The notes below the pieces were generated by a model. It was not told the DNA's origin. It did not search any database and saw only the letters and a program-made list of their open reading frames with translations. This document shows positions 1 to 10,573 of a DNA stretch of 10,573 nt, piece after piece; the stretch's first letter is position 1; each line of letters opens with the position of its first letter. Position numbers and translations under genes: made by a program. The stretch comes from Fidelibacterota bacterium (GTDB lineage: Bacteria > Fidelibacterota > Marinisomatia > Marinisomatales > UBA2128), in the NCBI GenBank assembly GCA_046861645.1, contig JBHHUM010000075.1, positions 1-10,573 on the forward strand, written 5' to 3'.

Positions 1-769
1 AGCCTGTATTACCCCTGGCGGCTTTTTCCCACTCAAATTCATCAGGTAAGCGTAATCCGTAATGTTCAGAAAATGCATTTGCGCCGAACCAGGTGACCCT
101 TGTAACTGGATGATCTCCATATCCTTCTTCTACAATAAAAGTGGTTCCATTCCAGGATATTCTACTTTCTGGAAGGTAGATGAAACCGTAATTACTTGGT
201 CCGTAGTATTCATCACCACTATAAAAACCTTGTACATAGTCGCCTGATATCCACACTTCCCCCGCTTCCAATGCCTCAATGAGATATTGGCCATATTCGG
301 CATTGGTCACTTCATATTTCATGATCTCGTAGTTGTAGTCAATCAAACGTATTTCATCCCCACCCCCAAACGTATAATCCCCGGAATCCACTAATACAAA
401 TTCAAAGGGGACTTCAATCAACCTCCCTGTAGCTATTACCTTTACCTTTACCTGGTCGCTGAAAACGCCTCCGTATTCCGCTCCCAGGTTCCAGACGATT
501 TGTTTCCCGGTTCCAGCCGTAACCCCGGCTCCCACATCCCCGGATACATAACTGGTAGAAGTATAGGTAACTCCGTCATCGAAACTCACTTCCACCGTCA
601 CTTTGTATTCGTTAAAGAGGGTGTCCTCAGCCAGATCATAGGTGATATCCACCATTTTGGACCCATCAGTACGCTGGGCAGCAGTCACATTTGTCACCGA
701 TGCTGTTTGAGAGAATCCGACTGATATTCCGAAAATTATCGTTAAAATGATTAAGTTAAATTTTCTCAT
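1..769 (-). CDS. Exported FGE-sulfatase (SUMF1/formylglycine-generating-enzyme-like, C-type-lectin fold) domain protein with N-terminal Ig-like domain; 3' end truncated by the window edge
   Basis: Not in the ORF track because it has no stop in the window. Manual translation from ATG 769..767 (AGGAG RBS at 780..776) gives 256 open codons. Signal peptide MRKFNLIILTIIFGISVGFSQ; beta-rich domain VTNVTAAQRTDGSKMVDITYDL...SFDDGVTY...KQIVWN; then FGE-sulfatase motifs FVLVDSGDYTFG, IMKYEVTNAEY, HPVTRVTWFGANAF, RLPDEFEWEKAARG. Confidence 0.9.
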   Translation of the reverse strand, partial: MRKFNLIILTIIFGISVGFSQTASVTNVTAAQRTDGSKMVDITYDLAEDTLFNEYKVTVEVSFDDGVTYTSTSYVSGDVGAGVTAGTGKQIVWNLGAEYGGVFSDQVKVKVIATGRLIEVPFEFVLVDSGDYTFGGGDEIRLIDYNYEIMKYEVTNAEYGQYLIEALEAGEVWISGDYVQGFYSGDEYYGPSNYGFIYLPESRISWNGTTFIVEEGYGDHPVTRVTWFGANAFSEHYGLRLPDEFEWEKAARGNTG

Positions 770-952: not shown

Positions 953-1843
953 TTACCAGACATAAACCACCCCATCCCCACTATCAAGAAGAATATCTTC
1001 ATTTGAGAGATTCCTCAGGGCCGATCCTGCTCCAAATTCCAAGTAAAAAGTATCTACCTGGGTAGAATCTAGGGGGAGTTGCTGAAACTTCAGTTCCATG
1101 ATATCTCCACTACCGTTTAAGCCGTCTTCGGCACCCGTGACTAAAGCCAGGTCCACTGTTAACGATCCTGCCAAGGAATCCCATTCCACAAAATCAAGAA
1201 TTGATCCGCCACTCTGGGTCAGAAAATCACTCGAATCTTTCAGAATCGCATATTCCTTTAAGCTCATTCCTTCTGGATCGTAAAACATCTCTACATGAAC
1301 ACCCATCATTGCCGATACGTCTTTTAAGGTAACATTGACTACAAATTCATCCCCGGATTCCTGGAAGGACAGGATAGTCGTTCGAGGTGTTATCATCAGG
1401 GCAGAAGAATAGGCATCCATCGTCCAGGAACGAGAGGGAAAGGGTTCATCTTCTGTGATATTGGTGGGATAACGAGCCATAACCTGGAAAAAATAACTGG
1501 TATCGTCCAGATAAGACAGGGTGACAAAAGTATCGGTAAAAAAGGGTGACCAGTGCCCCTGATTCAATCGGTAGGTATAAGCAATAGCGCCATATAGGCT
1601 ATCAATGTTGCCTGTACGATAGAAAGGATCCTTGGGTTGCCAGATGATGGTTACTTCCCTGGTAGAAACCGTCCCAGAGGGACCGGAAAGAATCCTCGTT
1701 TCAGGTTCTTTGAATTCCGGGTTAAGAGGATCGAAGGGATTTTCCGGTAGAGGTTGGAGGACATCACAGGTCCACACAACCAGCCCGATGATCATAACAA
1801 GTATGATCCGATTGAAGGATCTAGAGTAAACCACTTGCTTCAT
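953..1843 (-). CDS. Predicted lipoprotein with Ig-like domain and C-terminal cohesin-like domain
   Basis: 296-aa ORF. Basic N-terminus and hydrophobic stretch ending in lipobox-like LVVWT-C27, then NPFDPLNP and PETRILSGP Ig-like segment. The C-terminal GDEFVVNVTLKDVSAMMGVHVEMFYDP...GSLTVDLALV...LNGSGDIMELKF follows the cohesin beta-sandwich pattern. No clear SD, so the exact start is less certain. Confidence 0.8.
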   Translation of the reverse strand: MKQVVYSRSFNRIILVMIIGLVVWTCDVLQPLPENPFDPLNPEFKEPETRILSGPSGTVSTREVTIIWQPKDPFYRTGNIDSLYGAIAYTYRLNQGHWSPFFTDTFVTLSYLDDTSYFFQVMARYPTNITEDEPFPSRSWTMDAYSSALMITPRTTILSFQESGDEFVVNVTLKDVSAMMGVHVEMFYDPEGMSLKEYAILKDSSDFLTQSGGSILDFVEWDSLAGSLTVDLALVTGAEDGLNGSGDIMELKFQQLPLDSTQVDTFYLEFGAGSALRNLSNEDILLDSGDGVVYVW

Positions 1844-1888: not shown

Positions 1889-1931
1889 ATACTACACTTA
1901 AGAAACTTACAAAATTGTGACGTATTTCACG
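1889..1931 (-). promoter_or_regulatory. Putative class II CRP-dependent promoter: CRP box (1916-1931) plus -10 TAGTAT (1894..1889)
   Basis: TGTGA-cgtatt-TCACG matches TGTGA-N6-TCACA at 9/10 core positions with an AT-rich flank. Box centre 1923.5 is at -41.5 relative to a TSS at 1882 implied by the -10 hexamer TAGTAT on the minus strand. Confidence 0.65.
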
Positions 1932-1973: not shown

Positions 1974-4586
1974 CTACTTCTTGGTCAGGGTCCAAACTTT
2001 ATCCCAATCTTCACCAGGTGGGTTTTCTTTAAAATACATACATCTCTCTATATAAACTCGACTGGGATTTGAAGGTCGTAAAGTAAACATGTCCTCCAAC
2101 TCTTCAGCTGCTTTAAACACTCTCAAGGCATCGTTCCACTTCTGATCATAGTACAACTCCAAGCCTTCGTGAAAAGTATCCAGGAGTTTCGTCTGGTTAC
2201 CATTTAGCCCCCCCTTCTCAACCATCAATTCGTAGGTTCTTATGGGGACTGTTTTCCCCTTAACACGGACGTAATCAAGCGTCCTCCATTCAAACTGATC
2301 TTTTACTCTTTCGTAAGTGGATTCACTCACCTGAATATATACTCCATACTGTTTAGCGGAAGCCTCCAACCGGGCTGCAATATTAACTGTATCGCCCATC
2401 ATGGTATAATTCATGCGCATGTTGGAGCCCATATTTCCTGTAACCATTTCACCGGTACAAAGCCCGACCCTATGACGAAGATTATGAACCAGATCAGGCC
2501 AATCCCCCTCTTGTTCCCACTTCTGTCGCAGCTCAGCAATATGTTTATCCATCTCCAGGGCAGTCATACACGCTTGAAACTCATGATCCTCAACAGGTAC
2601 CGGAGCTCCATAGAAAGCCACTATGGCATCACCGATATATTTATCCAATGTACCTCGTCGAGCCAGGAGAATATCCGTCATCTCTGTCAAATACTCATTC
2701 ATCAGAGCCACCATTCGCTCTGGCTCCAACACTTCTGAGAAAGAGGAGAAACTCTGTATATCTGAGAAAAACGCCGTATGATAACCTGCTTCTCCTCCTA
2801 ATTTAGGCTCTTGGTGCTCTTCATACATCTGGTCGATAAGTTCGGGAGAAACGTACGTTCCAAAAGTGTTCTTCAGGAATCGCTTGTCCTTCTGCTCCAT
2901 GATGAACCTGTACAAAACATTGGTAATGTAGGTCACAGCGACACCAATGAAAGAGGCTACTACGGGTACGTAAAGAGATTCTCCCTTTCCGGGTACGTTG
3001 ATATTATTCCAGTTTCCAAACGTTAGCTTAACCAACCAGAAATAATCATTTGTAAATGATCCCAAAGCTATGCTGAAAAATATCAACAGTTCTACAAGAA
3101 TGCTCACGCCAGCGAAAAGGGGATTCATGGAAGCCAGAAAAATGAAGGCAATAAAAGCAAGAATGGCGATGAGAAAGATGTGTGATACCCACGATTTCTC
3201 CGACCATTCCTTATCTTTGCCGTACATCGTTATGAAATTCTGATCAATGATAGTCTGCAGGGCGTTAGCGTGAACCTCAACACCCGGCATCAGCTTCTGC
3301 TCACCAGCGAAACTGAAGTAGGGCGTTTCCTTGGTATCGTGAAAAACCTCTACAGATACTCCCAGAAGCACAACTTTATCACGGAATGGACTTTCATCCG
3401 GCCCCCCCATCCCGGGAATGTAATAGGCCCAATGTGTTGAATCGATAAACATGTCCATCCAGTCGATATCAGCATCAAAATCTCTCAGATCCACATCAGC
3501 CACATCAACAACTTGGAAGAGTGAATAAGTATCAAAAGTTTTCCAGGGAGGGTTGTCTCCGGTTTTTGCCGAAGAAGTAGGACCATAGAAGTTAATGAAA
3601 AATGTGGAAGTTGCTCCGTAGGTTGGAATTTCAATATCCTCGAATTGAATGATACCCTCTTCGGGGTCGCCTTCCAGTCGCAGAGAGTCATCGGGAGGAA
3701 AATCCAGGAATTCCATAGCGGAACGCATGGCTATGGTAAGATACCAGGTATTTGGATCTTCCCTGAGCATGTTAAAGGCGTAGTAACGCCGGGTAGTTCC
3801 ATCTGGGTCTTTGGTCTCATCCACGAGAGCAGTACGAGGTGCTGCCGACATAATCACGTCATTAGGTAAGATGAGTTCGTTACGTTGCTCCAGGGAATTA
3901 TATCCAATCTTTGAGGCTAAAATAACAGCAGTGCCCATCTCTTGCACTTCACTGATTGCGGCAGCAAAAGCACTGTCACCATGGGTGGGCACCAATTCGC
4001 GCAGTCCTCTGTCCATTAATTCACTTCGGATTTCTTTCAACGCTGGCTCTTCAGCGAGGCGGTCAGGAGCATCAAATTGAAAGTCAAATACGATAACTTT
4101 AGCACCAGCCCTGGCCAGATTTCTGACGACGCGTGCCCAAACTTCCCGTGTAAATGGCCATGACCAGGGAATGATCTCATACGATTTCTGGTCAAAATCA
4201 ATGATGACCACATCGAGCCCTTTATCCCACCTTCCATTTCCTTCATCAGAAAACGGTTCTCCATCATCCCAAACACTATTTCCATTCAAGTCTTCAAAGT
4301 CTTCTCCTTCGTTCCAATTCCCATCACCCACATCCTCGAAAGGTTCACCAATATCCCACTTCCCATTACCATTTTGGTCATGAAATGATTCAGAATTCCT
4401 AGGAATGGGTTCCCTGGCTGCCCATCCGGATAGAGGACCACGGATACGGAAAGCGAGATCATACATCTTATTTTCCAGGCTATCAAAGACGTGGAGTTGA
4501 TGGAAAAAAATAACAATAAGGATTGAGATTAAAGTCAGGATGATACCTACACCCTGTTTCTTAAATATTTTGATCAGATCCTTCAT
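1974..4586 (-). CDS. CHASE2-domain membrane adenylate cyclase (class III, IIIb-type) with C-terminal TPR-like tail
   Basis: 870 aa. N-terminal TM; CHASE2 motifs (LENKMYDLAFRIRG, DVVIIDFD, WPFTREVWARVVRNLARAGAKVIVFDFQF, DPDGTTRRY, FRDKVVLLG, MPGVEVHANALQTI); three further TM helices; cyclase motifs FSDIQSFS, DKYIGDA, RVGLCTGEMVTGNMGS, NYTMMGDTVNIAARLE. Lys in DKYIGD plus Thr in NYT indicate ATP specificity. Confidence 0.95.
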   Translation of the reverse strand: MKDLIKIFKKQGVGIILTLISILIVIFFHQLHVFDSLENKMYDLAFRIRGPLSGWAAREPIPRNSESFHDQNGNGKWDIGEPFEDVGDGNWNEGEDFEDLNGNSVWDDGEPFSDEGNGRWDKGLDVVIIDFDQKSYEIIPWSWPFTREVWARVVRNLARAGAKVIVFDFQFDAPDRLAEEPALKEIRSELMDRGLRELVPTHGDSAFAAAISEVQEMGTAVILASKIGYNSLEQRNELILPNDVIMSAAPRTALVDETKDPDGTTRRYYAFNMLREDPNTWYLTIAMRSAMEFLDFPPDDSLRLEGDPEEGIIQFEDIEIPTYGATSTFFINFYGPTSSAKTGDNPPWKTFDTYSLFQVVDVADVDLRDFDADIDWMDMFIDSTHWAYYIPGMGGPDESPFRDKVVLLGVSVEVFHDTKETPYFSFAGEQKLMPGVEVHANALQTIIDQNFITMYGKDKEWSEKSWVSHIFLIAILAFIAFIFLASMNPLFAGVSILVELLIFFSIALGSFTNDYFWLVKLTFGNWNNINVPGKGESLYVPVVASFIGVAVTYITNVLYRFIMEQKDKRFLKNTFGTYVSPELIDQMYEEHQEPKLGGEAGYHTAFFSDIQSFSSFSEVLEPERMVALMNEYLTEMTDILLARRGTLDKYIGDAIVAFYGAPVPVEDHEFQACMTALEMDKHIAELRQKWEQEGDWPDLVHNLRHRVGLCTGEMVTGNMGSNMRMNYTMMGDTVNIAARLEASAKQYGVYIQVSESTYERVKDQFEWRTLDYVRVKGKTVPIRTYELMVEKGGLNGNQTKLLDTFHEGLELYYDQKWNDALRVFKAAEELEDMFTLRPSNPSRVYIERCMYFKENPPGEDWDKVWTLTKK
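4218..4391 (-). repeat. Four tandem 14-15 aa acidic repeats (ExFxDx(N)GNGxWDxG) inserted in the CHASE2 domain
   Basis: Residues 66-123: ESFHDQNGNGKWDIG / EPFEDVGDGNWNEG / EDFEDLNGNSVWDDG / EPFSDEGNGRWDKG, alternating 15 and 14 aa (2 x 29 aa). Confidence 0.9.
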
Positions 4587-4607
4587 TTATCTTTTAATTG
4601 GACCAGA

Positions 4608-7352
4608 CTAAAATAAGTAATTCACAGAAAACTTCACAGCCAAGGTTCCTAAACTAAATTCACTATCCAATTGATTCATTTTTAACGAGAATCCCGCTTT
4701 CGCAGAAAATCGCTGCCACGGTTTCCACTCTACACCTCCATTAATGCCATAGTTACCAAACTTGGAAATTCCAGATGCCAGGAGACCATTAAGTCCACTC
4801 ATAAGTTTAAGTTTTTCGGGAATCAAAAAATAGGAGGAGTTGAATCCTATACTGGTATAAACCGTCTTTAATCCTTCTTCTCCAGCAGTCATTGTCTCTG
4901 GTAGTTCAAATGAATAGCGGCTGAAATTTATGGAAGATCGCCACCTTTTACCTAATTGTACATTGGTACCAAAGGCAATTGTTCTTGCTAAAGAATTTGG
5001 CGATAGAAAATCTAAGTCGCGGTCATCTACCAGCAGATCCTCCACGGTGATAGAACTCATCGTCATGGTGAATTGATAGCTGTTATTTCCTGATCGAACG
5101 GGTACGCTAAACGAAAAGAGACTGTTTTTTGTACGCATGTCTTCACGAAGGTCTTGCAGAGTTAAAGAGTCCTCCCCGGTACTGCTGGTAAACCAGACTG
5201 AGTCTAGAGCAGTTTTATCATTTCCACGATGTATAGATTGGAGATTTATCACTGCAGACGGCAAATCGATGCCTGGCGTAAACGTAAAATTCATTGTATA
5301 GGTCCCCTGAAAATCAGGATCGGATTCCGTTATCAGAACTTTATTGTCTTTGAATTTATAACTGAAATTTAAACGTAGTTTGTTGTGGAAAAGGCGAATT
5401 CTATCTGAGATTATAAATTCCCTTACATTGGTATTAAGATAGGGATTAGCCAGGGAATTGAATTCAGGTCCAACCTGGGAATACTGTATTTCAAATGTAT
5501 TTTCGTAGTAGTAAGCCCGGAGTTTCATTTTATAAGCTGCAGATGGCATTCTCATATAAGCCTGGAAAGGAGACTGATCAAACAGGTCGATATCCACAGG
5601 CACAAGAGGTGTCATATACTGGTTGACAATAAAGAAATCTTTTACAGAGGATGGATCCATCAAATCCTCAATTGAGAACCCCAGACTGGTCACAACACCG
5701 TAGTCATCGTACAAACGACCCACAAAACCATCCACAGAATCGTCAAGAGCCGTATCCATTTGTGCCAGAGTCAAAGCTCCATCCCATATGTTCTTATTCA
5801 GAAGGCTCATCGCCCAGGATATATCAAATGTCAATCTGCGATTATCAAAAGCAAGGCCCGCATCAAAACCAAAAACTATATTGTCCTGAGGATCGTCATC
5901 AGCCCAATTGGTAGTAGGCAATTCATAATCTCCAATACCCTTAAGGGCATTCTCAAATTCAGTTAGGGTATAGACCGCCGAGTCAATGCCAGGGTTACTA
6001 ACATAATCCTCCCAATTTGGAACTGTGAATTTAGCATCGCTTAGGATACGGTTAACTGTCCAGGTCTGATCCTTGGCTTTATGAAAATTTAGTCCCAAGT
6101 AATAACGATTTTTGTAATTAAGCATTAATCGATAAGCCTGATAGCTCCTTTCGAAAGTATATCCCACACGATTGAGAGAATACAAGGGTTGACCTGAACT
6201 CTGACTCTTTATGTCAGTGATCACATAGGATTTATCAACATCTGGAAGTCCATTCACTGCTCTCTCGAGTTGTCCATTCACAATCTGTACTCTGAGAAAA
6301 TTCAGGTTCACGTTCACTCCAAATCCTCGAATACGTTTCCCATCAATAGTGTATGGAGAAAGAACCGGAGTAAAATCTCCAAGATTAACCAGAATATTTT
6401 TACCTGATTTAATGGCGAGGGAAAAGCGGTTCCGAGGTTGTTGGTACTCACTTTCTTCGGTGGAAAGCTTAATATCAGTATTAAAACTGAGCCAGTCCCA
6501 GCCTCCTTCAATATTAATCTGTGATACTCCCACGCCGAGAGTTGCTGTTTCGACTCGATCCAAAGAGTAATCAGAACGTAGTTTTCCCGAGTAGGTAAAC
6601 TCTTCGGTAGCAGTCACTAGTCTGGCACCTATTCCAGCAACTGTAAACGACCAGGTTGTAGGAACTAAAGCATAACCATAAATGTTTCTCAGTTCTATTC
6701 GAGCAGTGTGCATACCTGCTTCTAAATCAGGTAATTCACAGGTTATTATTTCAGGGGTAATTTCACACAAACGAGTGACATTCTCTTGATCGATGAATAC
6801 TTGTACCTCATCCAAGTCAATACCAGTCACACTAAATAGAGAGACTGCAATCAGAACATCATCCGGATCAAGGATCTCCTCTACCTCCGGACTGATTATC
6901 AGCACATCAGCCTCAAGCAATTTAGCTGAAGTATCAGTTGCATTTTCAAACACTCGCCCCAGTTTTACTGCAGGTTCAACAGGTAACAAATGAGGGGATT
7001 CAAAGGGATCATCCGTGGGAAAAGCAACTACGGATAAATCTTCTAATGTAAAAATTACCGCATACTCTAATCCCTTTTCAGAAATATGTCCCCCCGAAAT
7101 AGTTGCATACCAAGTACCTTCAGAAAATTGCATGTGAACCTCCTGAAAACTCTCACTACCCACTATTCTATGAAACAGACGAGCGCTCAAAACCGCTTTG
7201 TCTCCAAAAATTACAGCCTCGATGGTTAATGGCTCACCCGCTGTAGGAGGATCGGGCGGAACATGATAAAGTCTGGTATCTGCGATTAAGAACTCAGGAA
7301 GTAATGTGAGGACTAAACATCCGGATATGATTGTTTTAAGTACCCGGATCAC
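4608..7352 (-). CDS. Large predicted outer-membrane beta-barrel protein with two N-terminal Ig-like domains
   Basis: 914 aa, GTG start with AAGGA RBS. Signal peptide; two beta-sandwich-like segments (LYHVPPDPPTAGEPLTIEAVI...GLEYAVIF; IISPE...GMHTARIELRN...TTWSFTV); many alternating amphipathic beta-strands; C-terminal VKFSVNYLF ending in Phe (BamA beta-signal). Confidence 0.8.
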   Translation of the reverse strand: MIRVLKTIISGCLVLTLLPEFLIADTRLYHVPPDPPTAGEPLTIEAVIFGDKAVLSARLFHRIVGSESFQEVHMQFSEGTWYATISGGHISEKGLEYAVIFTLEDLSVVAFPTDDPFESPHLLPVEPAVKLGRVFENATDTSAKLLEADVLIISPEVEEILDPDDVLIAVSLFSVTGIDLDEVQVFIDQENVTRLCEITPEIITCELPDLEAGMHTARIELRNIYGYALVPTTWSFTVAGIGARLVTATEEFTYSGKLRSDYSLDRVETATLGVGVSQINIEGGWDWLSFNTDIKLSTEESEYQQPRNRFSLAIKSGKNILVNLGDFTPVLSPYTIDGKRIRGFGVNVNLNFLRVQIVNGQLERAVNGLPDVDKSYVITDIKSQSSGQPLYSLNRVGYTFERSYQAYRLMLNYKNRYYLGLNFHKAKDQTWTVNRILSDAKFTVPNWEDYVSNPGIDSAVYTLTEFENALKGIGDYELPTTNWADDDPQDNIVFGFDAGLAFDNRRLTFDISWAMSLLNKNIWDGALTLAQMDTALDDSVDGFVGRLYDDYGVVTSLGFSIEDLMDPSSVKDFFIVNQYMTPLVPVDIDLFDQSPFQAYMRMPSAAYKMKLRAYYYENTFEIQYSQVGPEFNSLANPYLNTNVREFIISDRIRLFHNKLRLNFSYKFKDNKVLITESDPDFQGTYTMNFTFTPGIDLPSAVINLQSIHRGNDKTALDSVWFTSSTGEDSLTLQDLREDMRTKNSLFSFSVPVRSGNNSYQFTMTMSSITVEDLLVDDRDLDFLSPNSLARTIAFGTNVQLGKRWRSSINFSRYSFELPETMTAGEEGLKTVYTSIGFNSSYFLIPEKLKLMSGLNGLLASGISKFGNYGINGGVEWKPWQRFSAKAGFSLKMNQLDSEFSLGTLAVKFSVNYLF

Positions 7353-7411
7353 AAGGAGATGTCCTTAAGAGACTAAGCTCAGATTAGCAGTTTGGCGTAA
7401 GCTCAGGTAGC

Positions 7412-8095
7412 TCACTGAAACTTGATGATGAGCTCCTTTTCCTGACCATCAACATCCTGAAGTTGGATTCGGAGTTCGTGAATCTCCTCCTCCACTTCTA
7501 TATCTTCAGGGATATCTTCAGGATTTGTTTCTTCAACATTTAGAGTTCCGTTAGGTGTAGAAGTACCCGTCTGGTTTACACCCACATTTATCACTTCACC
7601 CGAAACTAAATTCAGTAGTTCTACTAATCCTTCTATGCCAATAAGCTTGTCTCCCAAGAGAGGATCAGACATTATCCAGAATTCAGTACCCTTTACGGAA
7701 GCTACAGATGTAGGGGTAGAAATAGCAAAATCACCTTTACGTTGTTTGGATACATTAGCTTTCAAGGTACCGGCCATCATATCCACTTTTTTGGATAATC
7801 CCTCTCCACTGCGAGTACCCCTGATTTCCAGATCGGTATTGGCTTTCACCTTTAACATACTTTTATCATCCAGGTAAACAACGACCAGGGCTCCATCCGA
7901 TCCAGTTCTGATCAAATCACGATCATTCAGAACAAATCCCTTTTTCAGGGGAGCAAAATTCGACTTACCTGTTGTTTTGACCTCGACACTACCCTTGACT
8001 TTCGTAACTACTGCAACTCTCTCTGCAGCATATATAAAGGATAAAAAGACAATTAAAGTAATTAATACACCAGAAATTTTATTTGTCAATTTCAT
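7412..8095 (-). CDS. Exported stand-alone FecR-domain protein
   Basis: 227 aa. Signal peptide ending IYA-A; FecR-domain motifs VAVVTKVKGSVEV, LNDRDLIRTGSDGALVVVYLDDKSMLKVKANT, GTLKANV, FAISTPTSVASVKGTEFWI, IEGLVEL; acidic tail. No cytoplasmic anti-sigma domain. Confidence 0.9.
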   Translation of the reverse strand: MKLTNKISGVLITLIVFLSFIYAAERVAVVTKVKGSVEVKTTGKSNFAPLKKGFVLNDRDLIRTGSDGALVVVYLDDKSMLKVKANTDLEIRGTRSGEGLSKKVDMMAGTLKANVSKQRKGDFAISTPTSVASVKGTEFWIMSDPLLGDKLIGIEGLVELLNLVSGEVINVGVNQTGTSTPNGTLNVEETNPEDIPEDIEVEEEIHELRIQLQDVDGQEKELIIKFQ

Positions 8096-8107
8096 AGTAC
8101 AGTCCCG

Positions 8108-9298
8108 CTACTCTATGGTGATAGTGATTATAGTCGCTGACTCATCAGCGATCTCACTAAAAACGGAATGGACTTGATCTTCACCTACATTTGAACCATC
8201 CAAACTGTAAATTCCAGTAGGAGAAAATCCTTCAAGATTACCTGTATCGCCAAAGTACACTTTGAATTGCTGTTCCCCTAAAATATCCATCAAATGTTGC
8301 AGTACGGGGTGAAGCATTTCTTCTTCTGGTCCACGTGGAGAAGTGGCATCTACCATTACGAACGCAAAAATGGAACTGATGTAGCTCTCTGTTCCGACTG
8401 TAGTAGGCAAATCTTTTTTAATCTGCCAGACATAGATATGACCCGGAATTAATTCTGGTGCCATTACCGGATATTGATACATGGTCGAGACCCCTACGGG
8501 CTGCCACCCTGCGGTCTGGTCCAGAGGTAAGATTGTCACATCTTCAATTGCTTCCTGAGGTGAGCTATGGGTTGTGGGATCAAACTCTGCAAGGCGGATA
8601 TGTGCTTCACAATTCGGACATGGTTCAGTTTCCCATTGGAAAATAGGGTAAGGACTGTAAACCAGGTTCTGACTGGTATCAGCCAGGGCACCGCCAGGAC
8701 CAATCAATGTCAACGAAGTAGGAGTGGTAATAACAATCGATTCTTGAACCTGGTCAGATATTTCAAATCCACCTGTCTCAGTGTTGCTACTCTTCACAAT
8801 CACATTAAATGAATAGGTTCCGTTAGGCATTCTACCTGAAGAGAGGATGGCGCTTTTCATGCTCTCAAATTCAGCCATATCAAGCTGTTCAACCACATGA
8901 ATCTTTCCACCCAGATCCACAGGATTAGAAGCCATATCGAATATTTCACTGGTTTCCATATTTAGATCCCGATTGTCAATACGAATATCAGCAAGCATTC
9001 TGAAAGGGTCCGTCTCTATTTTAAGGACAGTAGTGGGTTCATCAATACCCAAAGCTGGAGATTGCATAGTCATCTCAAATTCGATACTGACCCATACGTT
9101 AGAGTAGTCGTTATTTTCATCAGCTAAACGATATCCAAAGAATAGGACATCACTAGAACCTGTAGTAAGATCAATACTGCTGATATAATACATCTCGTAA
9201 GGGACAAACCCGGGGTCGGGTATCAGTTTAACTGATTGAGATGGTAATTGCTGCCATAAAAAGAGTACTGCAGCAAGAGTCATTAGAGTCTTTTTCAT
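8108..9298 (-). CDS. Exported hypothetical protein, acidic and beta-rich, with an Ig/FnIII-like C-terminal segment
   Basis: 396 aa. AGGAGG RBS at 9311..9306; signal peptide MKKTLMTLAAVLFLWQQLPSQ; LTLIGP...PYPIFQWE...YQYP...LIPGHIYVWQI pattern typical of FnIII-like domains; CPNC motif. Confidence 0.85.
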   Translation of the reverse strand: MKKTLMTLAAVLFLWQQLPSQSVKLIPDPGFVPYEMYYISSIDLTTGSSDVLFFGYRLADENNDYSNVWVSIEFEMTMQSPALGIDEPTTVLKIETDPFRMLADIRIDNRDLNMETSEIFDMASNPVDLGGKIHVVEQLDMAEFESMKSAILSSGRMPNGTYSFNVIVKSSNTETGGFEISDQVQESIVITTPTSLTLIGPGGALADTSQNLVYSPYPIFQWETEPCPNCEAHIRLAEFDPTTHSSPQEAIEDVTILPLDQTAGWQPVGVSTMYQYPVMAPELIPGHIYVWQIKKDLPTTVGTESYISSIFAFVMVDATSPRGPEEEMLHPVLQHLMDILGEQQFKVYFGDTGNLEGFSPTGIYSLDGSNVGEDQVHSVFSEIADESATIITITIE

Positions 9299-9343
9299 AA
9301 CGAAGCCTCCTGACTTAAGTTAAACCTTCCAAGCGCAGGTTCT

Positions 9344-9359
9344 TGTGACGCATATCAAC
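9344..9359. promoter_or_regulatory. Second CRP/FNR-family-like box upstream of the cyclase operon
   Basis: TGTGA-cgcata-TCAAC. TTGTGACGcATaTCA (9343-9357) is 13/15 identical to TTGTGACGtATtTCA (1915-1929). Confidence 0.5.
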
Positions 9360-9475: not shown

Positions 9476-9507
9476 AAAAAACCCTTGAAAAAAAGTCTTC
9501 AAGGGTT
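9476..9507 (-). terminator. Intrinsic terminator of the rRNA operon
   Basis: 10-bp inverted repeat AACCCTTGAA (9480-9489) / TTCAAGGGTT (9498-9507), 8-nt loop, ending in a U6 run (9481..9476) on the minus strand, immediately after 5S. Confidence 0.85.
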
Positions 9508-9514
9508 AAAAAGT

Positions 9515-9632
9515 CCCCGGCGATGACCTACTCTCCCACCCTGTTACCGGGGCAGTACCATTGGCGCTGCAGGGCTTAACTACCGAGTTCGGAATGGGAT
9601 CGGGTGTGCCCCCTACGCTATGATCGCCGAGA
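9515..9632 (-). rRNA. rrf: 5S ribosomal RNA
   Basis: Minus strand CUCGGCGAUCAUAGCG...CACACCCGAUCCCAUUCCGAACUCGG...GUGGGAGAGUAGGUCAUCGCCGGGG; conserved CCGAAC loop; paired termini; about 118 nt. Ends approximate. Confidence 0.97.

Positions 9633-9697: not shown

Positions 9698-10573
<876 letters not shown>

Follow-up and report, generated by a model that had tools for sequence, protein, structure and literature searches.

A conserved four-gene operon joining a FecR protein and a predicted large outer-membrane barrel to a CHASE2 adenylate cyclase in Marinisomatota

Introduction

Marinisomatota is a widespread and largely uncultured phylum (the name is the one used here; close homologues of the barrel protein described below are labelled Fidelibacterota or Ca. 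Marinimicrobia). The DNA under study, called the window, is a stretch of 10,573 nucleotides (nt) and makes up the entire contig C58 (JBHHUM010000075.1) of a 2.5 Mb, 94% complete genome of this phylum (GCA_046861645.1). It carries an operon of four genes, which encode an exported protein (A), a FecR-domain protein, a predicted outer-membrane beta-barrel (B) and a CHASE2 adenylate cyclase. The module is real and phylum-wide. With a probability of about 57%, we consider it to be a sigma-independent relay, in which a cue from outside or from the envelope would be passed by the barrel, A and/or the FecR protein to CHASE2, and from there via cyclic AMP (cAMP) to the cAMP receptor protein (CRP), which would feed back on the operon.

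Organization of the locus

On the minus strand, the window runs from the end of a 23S rRNA gene through 5S rRNA and a terminator hairpin to A, FecR, B and the cyclase, followed by a gene for a protein of 296 amino acids (aa) and a cut FGE-like gene. The features of the operon are as follows.

8108..9298, minus strand: gene A, exported 396-aa protein; Ig-like region 22-190, FN3 domain 194-317 and a small C-terminal domain
7412..8095, minus strand: FecR-domain-only protein of 227 aa; N-terminal signal-like segment, G136-T137, acidic linker and conserved C-terminal hairpin-like segment
4608..7352, minus strand: gene B, predicted outer-membrane beta-barrel of 914 aa with a GTG start; two N-terminal Ig domains, about 26 long strands (253-913) and a C-terminal Phe
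1974..4586, minus strand: inner-membrane CHASE2 adenylate cyclase of 870 aa; CHASE2 E 7.8e-39, Guanylate_cyc E 8.9e-25
9344..9359, minus strand: CRP-type box before gene A; 2 mismatches to TGTGA-N6-TCACA
9317..9322, minus strand: -10-like hexamer (TAACTT) with a spacer of exactly 21 nt to the box; putative class II geometry

An earlier reading of the letters alone (the sequence-only reading) had described four co-oriented genes with gaps of 12, 59 and 21 nt. The same gaps were obtained when re-measured, and the open reading frames (ORFs), Pfam matches and structural models bear out the content it gave, namely an exported Ig-like protein, a FecR-only protein, a barrel and a CHASE2 cyclase. The remaining listed ORFs are antisense to the operon genes or lie within rRNA. 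Just upstream of the operon stand the rRNA terminator (9480-9507) and the pair of CRP box and -10 hexamer (9344-9359 and 9317-9322), and from these elements all four genes are predicted to be driven by one upstream promoter. A generic sigma-70 scan returned 14 sites versus 21 in shuffles, and its site at 9420-9392 was not used. The window was also said to lack a sigma factor of the extracytoplasmic function (ECF) type; among the six proteins scanned there is indeed no sigma match, and none of the six holds a CxxCH motif.

Conservation of the gene order

Homologous loci were collected from near genomes (40 of 52 places fetched), from the phylum (40 of 150 listed places) and from a scan of GTDB that started from an alignment biased towards KSB1, of which all 55 loci were taken; the first two samples were picked by score and family spread. 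Relatives of the barrel are present in 27 of 31 near genomes and in 122 of 151 phylum genomes. The complete run of A, FecR, B and cyclase was observed at 20/40 near, 33/40 phylum and 39/55 GTDB-scan loci. The four-gene order is thereby held by 53 of the 80 fetched Marinisomatota loci, most of the others being cyclase-free A-FecR-B paralogues. Five of the 55 GTDB-scan loci are of the Marinisomatota type, four of them repeats of earlier genomes. The other 50 bear the titles KSB1, Calditrichota, 'Cytophagia', 'Deferribacteres', Gemmatimonadota and, once, Spirochaetota; of these, 37 have the complete run, 12 run into contig ends, and in one the sole match to A is weak. Outside the phylum, no locus with room showed any other gene arrangement. 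The synteny in other genomes, which the sequence-only reading had put up as a test of itself, is thus conserved across several phyla, and because of this conservation the order goes far beyond chance.

CHASE2 is found in 125, and the barrel in 122, of the same 151 genomes. Both are missing from the small-genome family f12 (0/12) and from f15 (0/1), and in family f25 CHASE2 is present in 9 of 20 genomes versus 5 of 20 for B; such co-loss stands for a few losses among non-independent kin and is not a statistic. One could imagine the cyclase as a mere neighbour of an unrelated three-gene surface module, in keeping with the three-gene cassettes that exist without it. This view is, however, largely refuted by the same order and tight spacing across phyla despite differing flanks, and the co-loss of barrel and CHASE2 also speaks against it; we regard it as highly improbable.

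The FecR protein and the cyclase

In the FecR protein, the match to PF04773 (E 1.7e-11) begins at residue 61, behind the one hydrophobic segment at the N-terminus, and the protein is without an anti-sigma part, as had been noticed before. The pair Gly136-Thr137 is conserved in 53 of 55 orthologues, and the acidic linker has a mean charge of -6.6 (80 rows). From the place of the motif in the domain, G136-T137 is probably equivalent to the self-cleavage site of FecR; the E. coli protein is described in extracts of PMC12036975 as cleaving itself at Gly-Thr (G181-T182).

In the cyclase, one membrane segment at the N-terminus precedes the CHASE2 domain and three more come behind it, after which the cyclase domain follows; the hydrophobic segments lie at 7-37, 463-513 (two-helix length) and 537-558. 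Residues D609, K649, D653, N735 and R739 are invariant in 49/49 orthologues, and residue 728 is Thr in 48 and Ser in one of them. We take the Asp pair to bind metal, the Lys together with Thr/Ser to specify ATP, and the Asn and Arg to serve the transition state; Lys649 and Thr728 would then point to ATP as the substrate. Judged by these residues, the catalytic site is intact, and synthesis of cAMP is predicted. Acidic Gly-rich repeats occur within the CHASE2 domain (window 4220-4390, cyclase residues about 66-121) and also match proteins on C120 and C34 of the same genome. They are lineage-specific and, as a guess, possibly bind calcium.

Sequence searches of solved structures gave zero matches for the FecR and CHASE2 profiles. 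Prediction of a complex between CHASE2 (36-462) and FecR (24-227) from paired 80-row alignments scored 0.00 against a mark of 0.32, which is evidence neither way. Average-product-corrected mutual information between proteins (MI-APC; about 100 paired loci, effective sequence number 47-82) had recurring clade-marker columns as its top pairs and was uninformative.

The barrel and the exported protein

Gene B was folded with AlphaFold2 on 83 of 150 aligned sequences, and the architecture was read from secondary-structure assignment (DSSP), not from coordinates. The model has a mean predicted confidence (pLDDT) of 90.5, so that the 914-aa protein does model as a barrel, a second point which the sequence-only reading had put to the test. 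Thirty long strands are listed; two short pairs among them resemble extensions of hairpins, which leaves about 26 for the barrel. Two large loop insertions, at about 430-490 and 520-605, hold conserved residues. No Pfam family lies over the cut-off in B, and among 56 barrel members there was no match to Plug or TonB-receptor families, to usher, POTRA or chaperone families or to tetratricopeptide repeat (TPR) families; the last are also absent from the window proteins. The model and these scans agree with the former remark that the barrel shows no obvious TonB plug or TPRs, and B is predicted to be a very large plug-less outer-membrane pore.

Among 48,161 chains, the best fold match of B is MtrB (6r2q_B; Z 21.1, root-mean-square deviation 4.9, 447 residues aligned). 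The alignment covers the whole barrel at 9% identity; the next-best Z is 16.8, and the usher FimD has Z 16.1. A separate fold search had MtrB as its top hit too. By E-value, MtrB takes fourth place in Foldseek; no listed chain has a higher query TM-score there. LptD, which also has 26 strands, does not appear in the list of fold matches, an absence that excludes nothing. A sequence search of solved structures with B gave a sole match, of the first Ig domain to PPAD (E 2e-4), and its ESM Atlas neighbours are unnamed Fidelibacterota clusters. The family counts 833 representatives at E 1e-30, a number which includes Ig-repeat proteins.

The model of A was built from 34 sequences (pLDDT 84), and its FN3 domain matches with Z about 9. 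The protein has an invariant Cys pair and no CxxCH; no Pfam family lies over the cut-off and no NCBIfam family was matched. A weak E-set (TcfC) match appears in 4 of the 34 A proteins. Kinship with DUF928 was considered and set aside, being weak (E 0.03 in 1/34 A proteins) and stronger in long FN3-repeat relatives. In some distant versions of the operon (L058, L059, L060 and L086), FN3-repeat proteins of 700-1900 aa with weak DUF928 matches replace A; at L060, FN3-type repeats are fused to the FecR domain.

A putative CRP-type promoter

The region of 220 nt upstream of A was scanned for CRP-type boxes, and the expectation was taken from doublet shuffles. A box with at most 2 mismatches precedes A in 39 of 52 Marinisomatota four-gene loci versus 4.0 expected, and one with at most 1 mismatch in 14 of 52 versus 0.3. 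The hexamer TAnnnT was found at a spacer of exactly 21 nt in 25/59 sites, as against 0-6 sites at any of the other spacers between 12 and 31 nt. Without the two sites of the window, which prompted the test, the figure is 23/57; ties give some loci two rows. The 21-nt spacing is kept across many families, while the spacer sequence is unrelated. In class II promoters of E. coli, the CRP box lies 21 nt before the -10 hexamer. The promoter of gene A would hence have class II geometry, and binding of CRP is predicted from it; in such promoters the box takes the -35 position (as given in part of PMC10127613).

A CRP is encoded on C89 of the same genome; it matches 4ev0 with E 2.6e-37 and stays under the cut-off of the NCBIfam model for CRP. 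It carries the motifs FFGE, TRSA and RETVSR, which belong to the cAMP pocket and the recognition helix. It is one of 7 matches to the cyclic nucleotide-binding (cNMP) domain in the genome, which also encodes two other CRP/FNR-family proteins. Another protein of this family could be the reader of the boxes, the first box of the window having one FNR-like half.

Relation to known systems

The sequence-only reading had stated that, in Sinorhizobium meliloti, the barrel protein NsrA signals to the CHASE2 cyclase CyaK, and this holds. In the sections of PMC7529298 and PMC13001267 that bear on it, signalling by CyaK requires NsrA. By its place and size, the 1190-aa gene that precedes cyaK was taken as NsrA. 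Its product consists of FecR, TPR and a C-terminal region, and its FecR part matches the profile of the operon FecR (E 3e-23). The two systems are alike in that coding sequences for an outer-membrane barrel and a FecR domain immediately precede the gene of a class III cyclase with CHASE2, and in their CRP-family output. The FecR, CHASE2 and cyclase domains of NsrA-CyaK, which acts with CyaD1/D2 and the CRP-like Clr, are homologous to those of the operon. They differ in that NsrA unites FecR, TPR and barrel in one 1190-aa chain, whereas the operon has a free FecR, no TPRs and an added Ig/FN3 protein. A profile of 150 barrel sequences gave zero hits to the 1190-aa protein at E 10, and A also had no match there. 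An analogous system split into separate parts had been suggested before; the shared FecR and CHASE2, the separate ORFs and the extra exported A agree with this, but the barrel brings no detectable NsrA homology. The operon would work like NsrA-CyaK and is not a member of it by receptor architecture or barrel homology.

With FecA-FecR-FecI, the operon shares PF04773 with its Gly-Thr pair and an outer-membrane partner. It differs in having no anti-sigma part, ECF sigma, plug or TonB-receptor match, and its output domain is a cyclase. TonB-dependent transporters have an N-terminal plug and a 22-strand barrel, whereas the model of B shows two Ig domains and about 26 strands. From fimbrial ushers B is set apart by the absence of usher Pfam matches in the 56 members.

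The likeness to Shewanella MtrB of the MtrAB conduit is that of a best structural match, with Z 4 above the next, and may reflect barrel size only. MtrB is presented, in extracts of PMC7198977, as a 26-strand barrel sheathing a separate protein, MtrA. B has no match to the MtrB family and has two periplasmic Ig domains, and the operon lacks a CxxCH partner. Because no operon protein has CxxCH, the likeness is architectural and a role as electron conduit was rejected.

FecR-domain genes are known to cluster with CHASE2 sensors. Examples are an operon of a LysM-FecR protein and a CHASE2 kinase in Burkholderia (PMC5192318, in part) and a CHASE2 cyclase cluster in Campylobacterota, also with a FecR-domain gene (PMC9239204, in part). 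The portions of these papers dealing with the clusters give other partners (phosphodiesterase, TPR protein, response regulator) and describe no Ig/FN3 protein or B-like barrel. In the open literature searched, FecR-CHASE2 clustering is already in print and the four-gene module is not described.

A probable relay from the envelope to cAMP

From these elements, we infer the following chain. A barrel of 26 strands that lacks a plug is likely to require something to fill it, for which the operon offers two candidates: A and/or the FecR protein would close the predicted plug-less barrel B or bind to it. A cue from the outside or from the envelope would be handed on by B to the soluble FecR protein; FecR, in turn, would work in the periplasm on CHASE2 and so turn the cyclase on. 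The resulting cAMP would load CRP, and CRP would activate the operon and other secreted-protein genes from the class II promoter, forming a positive loop. As a first guess, by analogy with NsrA, the cue may be a protein or peptide. This direction of signalling is supported by the requirement of NsrA for CyaK signalling in S. meliloti. The recurrence of FecR-CHASE2 pairing also supports the relay: it is found in S. meliloti, in 9 of 20 further CHASE2 cyclase loci hand-picked from the phylum CHASE2 scan, at the second CHASE2 cyclase of this genome (C131), which lies directly behind its own FecR gene, at L116, and in Burkholderia and Campylobacterota. The conserved gene order, the co-loss of barrel and CHASE2, the intact cyclase residues, the barrel model with its MtrB match, the box kept with its 21-nt spacing and the CRP on C89 speak for the relay as well. 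The relay of the sequence-only reading is upheld in part, by synteny and barrel fold; not noticed in it were the promoter of CRP type, the three-gene paralogues without a cyclase and the precedent of an output in S. meliloti discussed below.

A more specific and rather doubtful form of the relay takes B as a signalling sheath comparable to MtrB around MtrA, its 26-strand lumen threaded by A or the FecR protein, which would span the outer membrane and pull on CHASE2. If true, this would be a TonB- and sigma-independent, self-amplifying conduit from the surface to cAMP that is ancestral in Marinisomatota, KSB1 and Calditrichota, and FecR would be the input of CHASE2 that has long been sought. 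According to a passage of PMC5192318, it is not known what CHASE2 domains sense, and the route from NsrA to CyaK across the periplasm is left unexplained in the relevant parts of PMC7529298 and PMC13001267. In the split operon, the FecR domain stands by itself as a soluble protein of 204 residues, so that FecR as the CHASE2 input becomes directly testable, and the CRP box is a ready-made native reporter for the cAMP output. The operon moreover gives a context to an unnamed family of very large plug-less barrels.

Several observations weigh against the relay. At 21 loci, A-FecR-B with at least 1 kb of room behind it is without a cyclase, and of 22 cassettes scored as cyclase-free, a set that includes four contig-end cases, 13 have a box versus 2.3 expected. 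Since such cassettes are common and many have a CRP box, A-FecR-B may work apart from the cyclase. Conversely, 11 of the 20 further CHASE2 cyclases have no adjacent FecR gene, and a close cyclase orthologue in another genome (G051; L182, C12) has no adjacent A, FecR or B; that genome is 94% complete and gave no barrel match in the phylum scan. Among the GTDB-scan four-gene loci, a box was seen in 5 of 37 versus 3.5 expected, that is, with no enrichment outside Marinisomatota. B shows no detectable NsrA homology, and the analogy is carried by FecR and CHASE2. Lastly, the stand-alone FecR protein SMc02177 of S. meliloti is, in the available text of PMC5498481, a target of Clr and dispensable for signal perception.

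These points lead to a second explanation, the main rival of the relay, which we hold to be rather unlikely. A-FecR-B would be an output controlled by cAMP, in which B exports or displays A in the manner of an usher or a two-partner system and FecR is a periplasmic chaperone; the co-transcribed cyclase would be an upstream regulator or a mere monitor of pore load. The cyclase-free cassettes that persist with a CRP box agree with it, as does SMc02177, itself an output (PMC5498481, in part). A-like genes grow to 700-1900 aa of FN3-type repeats, like adhesin cargo, and ushers are among the next fold matches of B (FimD). Yet at least 15 of 18 checked cassettes, those from the hand-picked Marinisomatota loci, sit in genomes also holding a four-gene copy and could feed its cyclase in trans. 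FecR-CHASE2 pairing also occurs without A or B, and no usher, POTRA or chaperone family was found in the 56 barrel members.

Other arrangements of the same parts

In the genome of the window, a cyclase-free cassette is split over C148 and C150, and a third A lies on C77. Some cyclase-free cassettes (L041, L042, L044, L065, L093, L094 and L095) have the FecR protein lengthened to 520-700 aa. In an unrooted barrel tree of 64 rows (all cyclase-free loci and every second other locus), the cyclase-free copies form two groups, with no order of events claimed, and the five extended-FecR cassettes present form one group. On C18 (3252-5468, L107), a 738-aa protein consists of a FecR domain, a long acidic linker and a region without Pfam match that ends in Phe. 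It looks like a FecR-barrel fusion, NsrA-like without TPRs, the barrel being putative.

The 20 further CHASE2 loci fall into nine with FecR upstream, nine with a gene of about 410 aa behind and two with neither. FecR is thus a frequent, not a universal, partner of CHASE2. The gene of about 410 aa encodes SH3 and an M48 peptidase in the two scanned by Pfam, and is possibly a different input for CHASE2; the loci of this type, with no FecR neighbour, are L167, L168, L169, L170, L173, L175, L180, L181 and L184. In a third arrangement, a CHASE2 cyclase follows a FecR-only gene; a large protein is encoded upstream of them and there is no barrel (C131:6981-10434 of this genome; L174, L176-L179, L185 and L186). 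The large protein is about 2000 aa in most, and has a FlgD-Ig C-terminal domain in the one scanned. At L116 (7431-10853), the four-gene operon is directly followed by another FecR gene and a Ser/Thr kinase with CHASE2.

Genomic context and candidate targets

rRNA adjoins 44 of the 53 four-gene Marinisomatota loci. Behind the cyclase, porX is found in 35 of 47 Marinisomatota loci with room; in this genome it is on C93 instead. The usual place of the operon in the phylum is between rRNA and porX. Genome-wide, a box with a hexamer at 21 nt precedes 14 of 1731 genes versus 1-7 at other spacers. Doublet shuffles give 3-9, so that about half of the 14 candidates may be chance, and there is no excess at 3 mismatches. 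Signal-peptide-like starts are seen in 11 of the 14 versus a background of 29%. The list is a lead only; it suggests that Marinisomatota have a regulon of secreted proteins under cAMP-CRP.

A further alternative draws on this context. The module would sense the state of the envelope, either B assembly or cargo flow of the type IX secretion system (T9SS); assembled B would hold FecR and A, and free FecR would set the rate of the cyclase. The fixed place before porX, a T9SS regulator, fits this, and so do the preponderance of signal-peptide proteins among the candidate targets and the near-universal retention in the phylum, which suggests a housekeeping role. But of 37 GTDB-scan loci, just 2 have porX behind the cyclase, both Marinisomatota duplicates, and the two large loop insertions of B with their conserved residues suit a ligand site. 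We consider this alternative improbable and retain the relay.

The type IV pilus cluster of this genome (C161:12072-19700, L187) encodes two PilT/PilU-family ATPases, a PilB-like and a PilC-like protein. The first pilT is preceded, at 52 nt, by a CRP-box/-10 match; this falls, however, in the end of the ORF before it and is a lead only.

Flanking features of the window

9698..10573, minus strand: 3' part of 23S rRNA (Rfam RF02541), context
9515..9631, minus strand: 5S rRNA (Rfam RF00001), context
9480..9507, minus strand: intrinsic-terminator-like hairpin ending the rRNA operon; 12-bp stem and T run
1916..1931, minus strand: second CRP-type box, before the 296-aa gene; 1 mismatch, TAGTAT 21 nt behind (1889-1894)
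953..1843, minus strand: 296-aa lipoprotein-like protein; weak cohesin match only (PF00963, E 0.083)
2..769, minus strand: FGE-sulfatase-like secreted protein (PF03781, E 5.4e-15), truncated by the contig end

In this genome, the 296-aa and FGE-like genes occupy the usual place of porX and tsaE. At L100 (3150-4715) and L072 (7789-9372), for example, porX (over the cut-off of NCBIfam NF052313) and tsaE come after the cyclase. The 296-aa gene is lineage-specific, lying behind the cyclase in 8 of 40 loci, and a box with at most 2 mismatches is present behind the cyclase in 7 of these 8. It is likely a target of cAMP-CRP.

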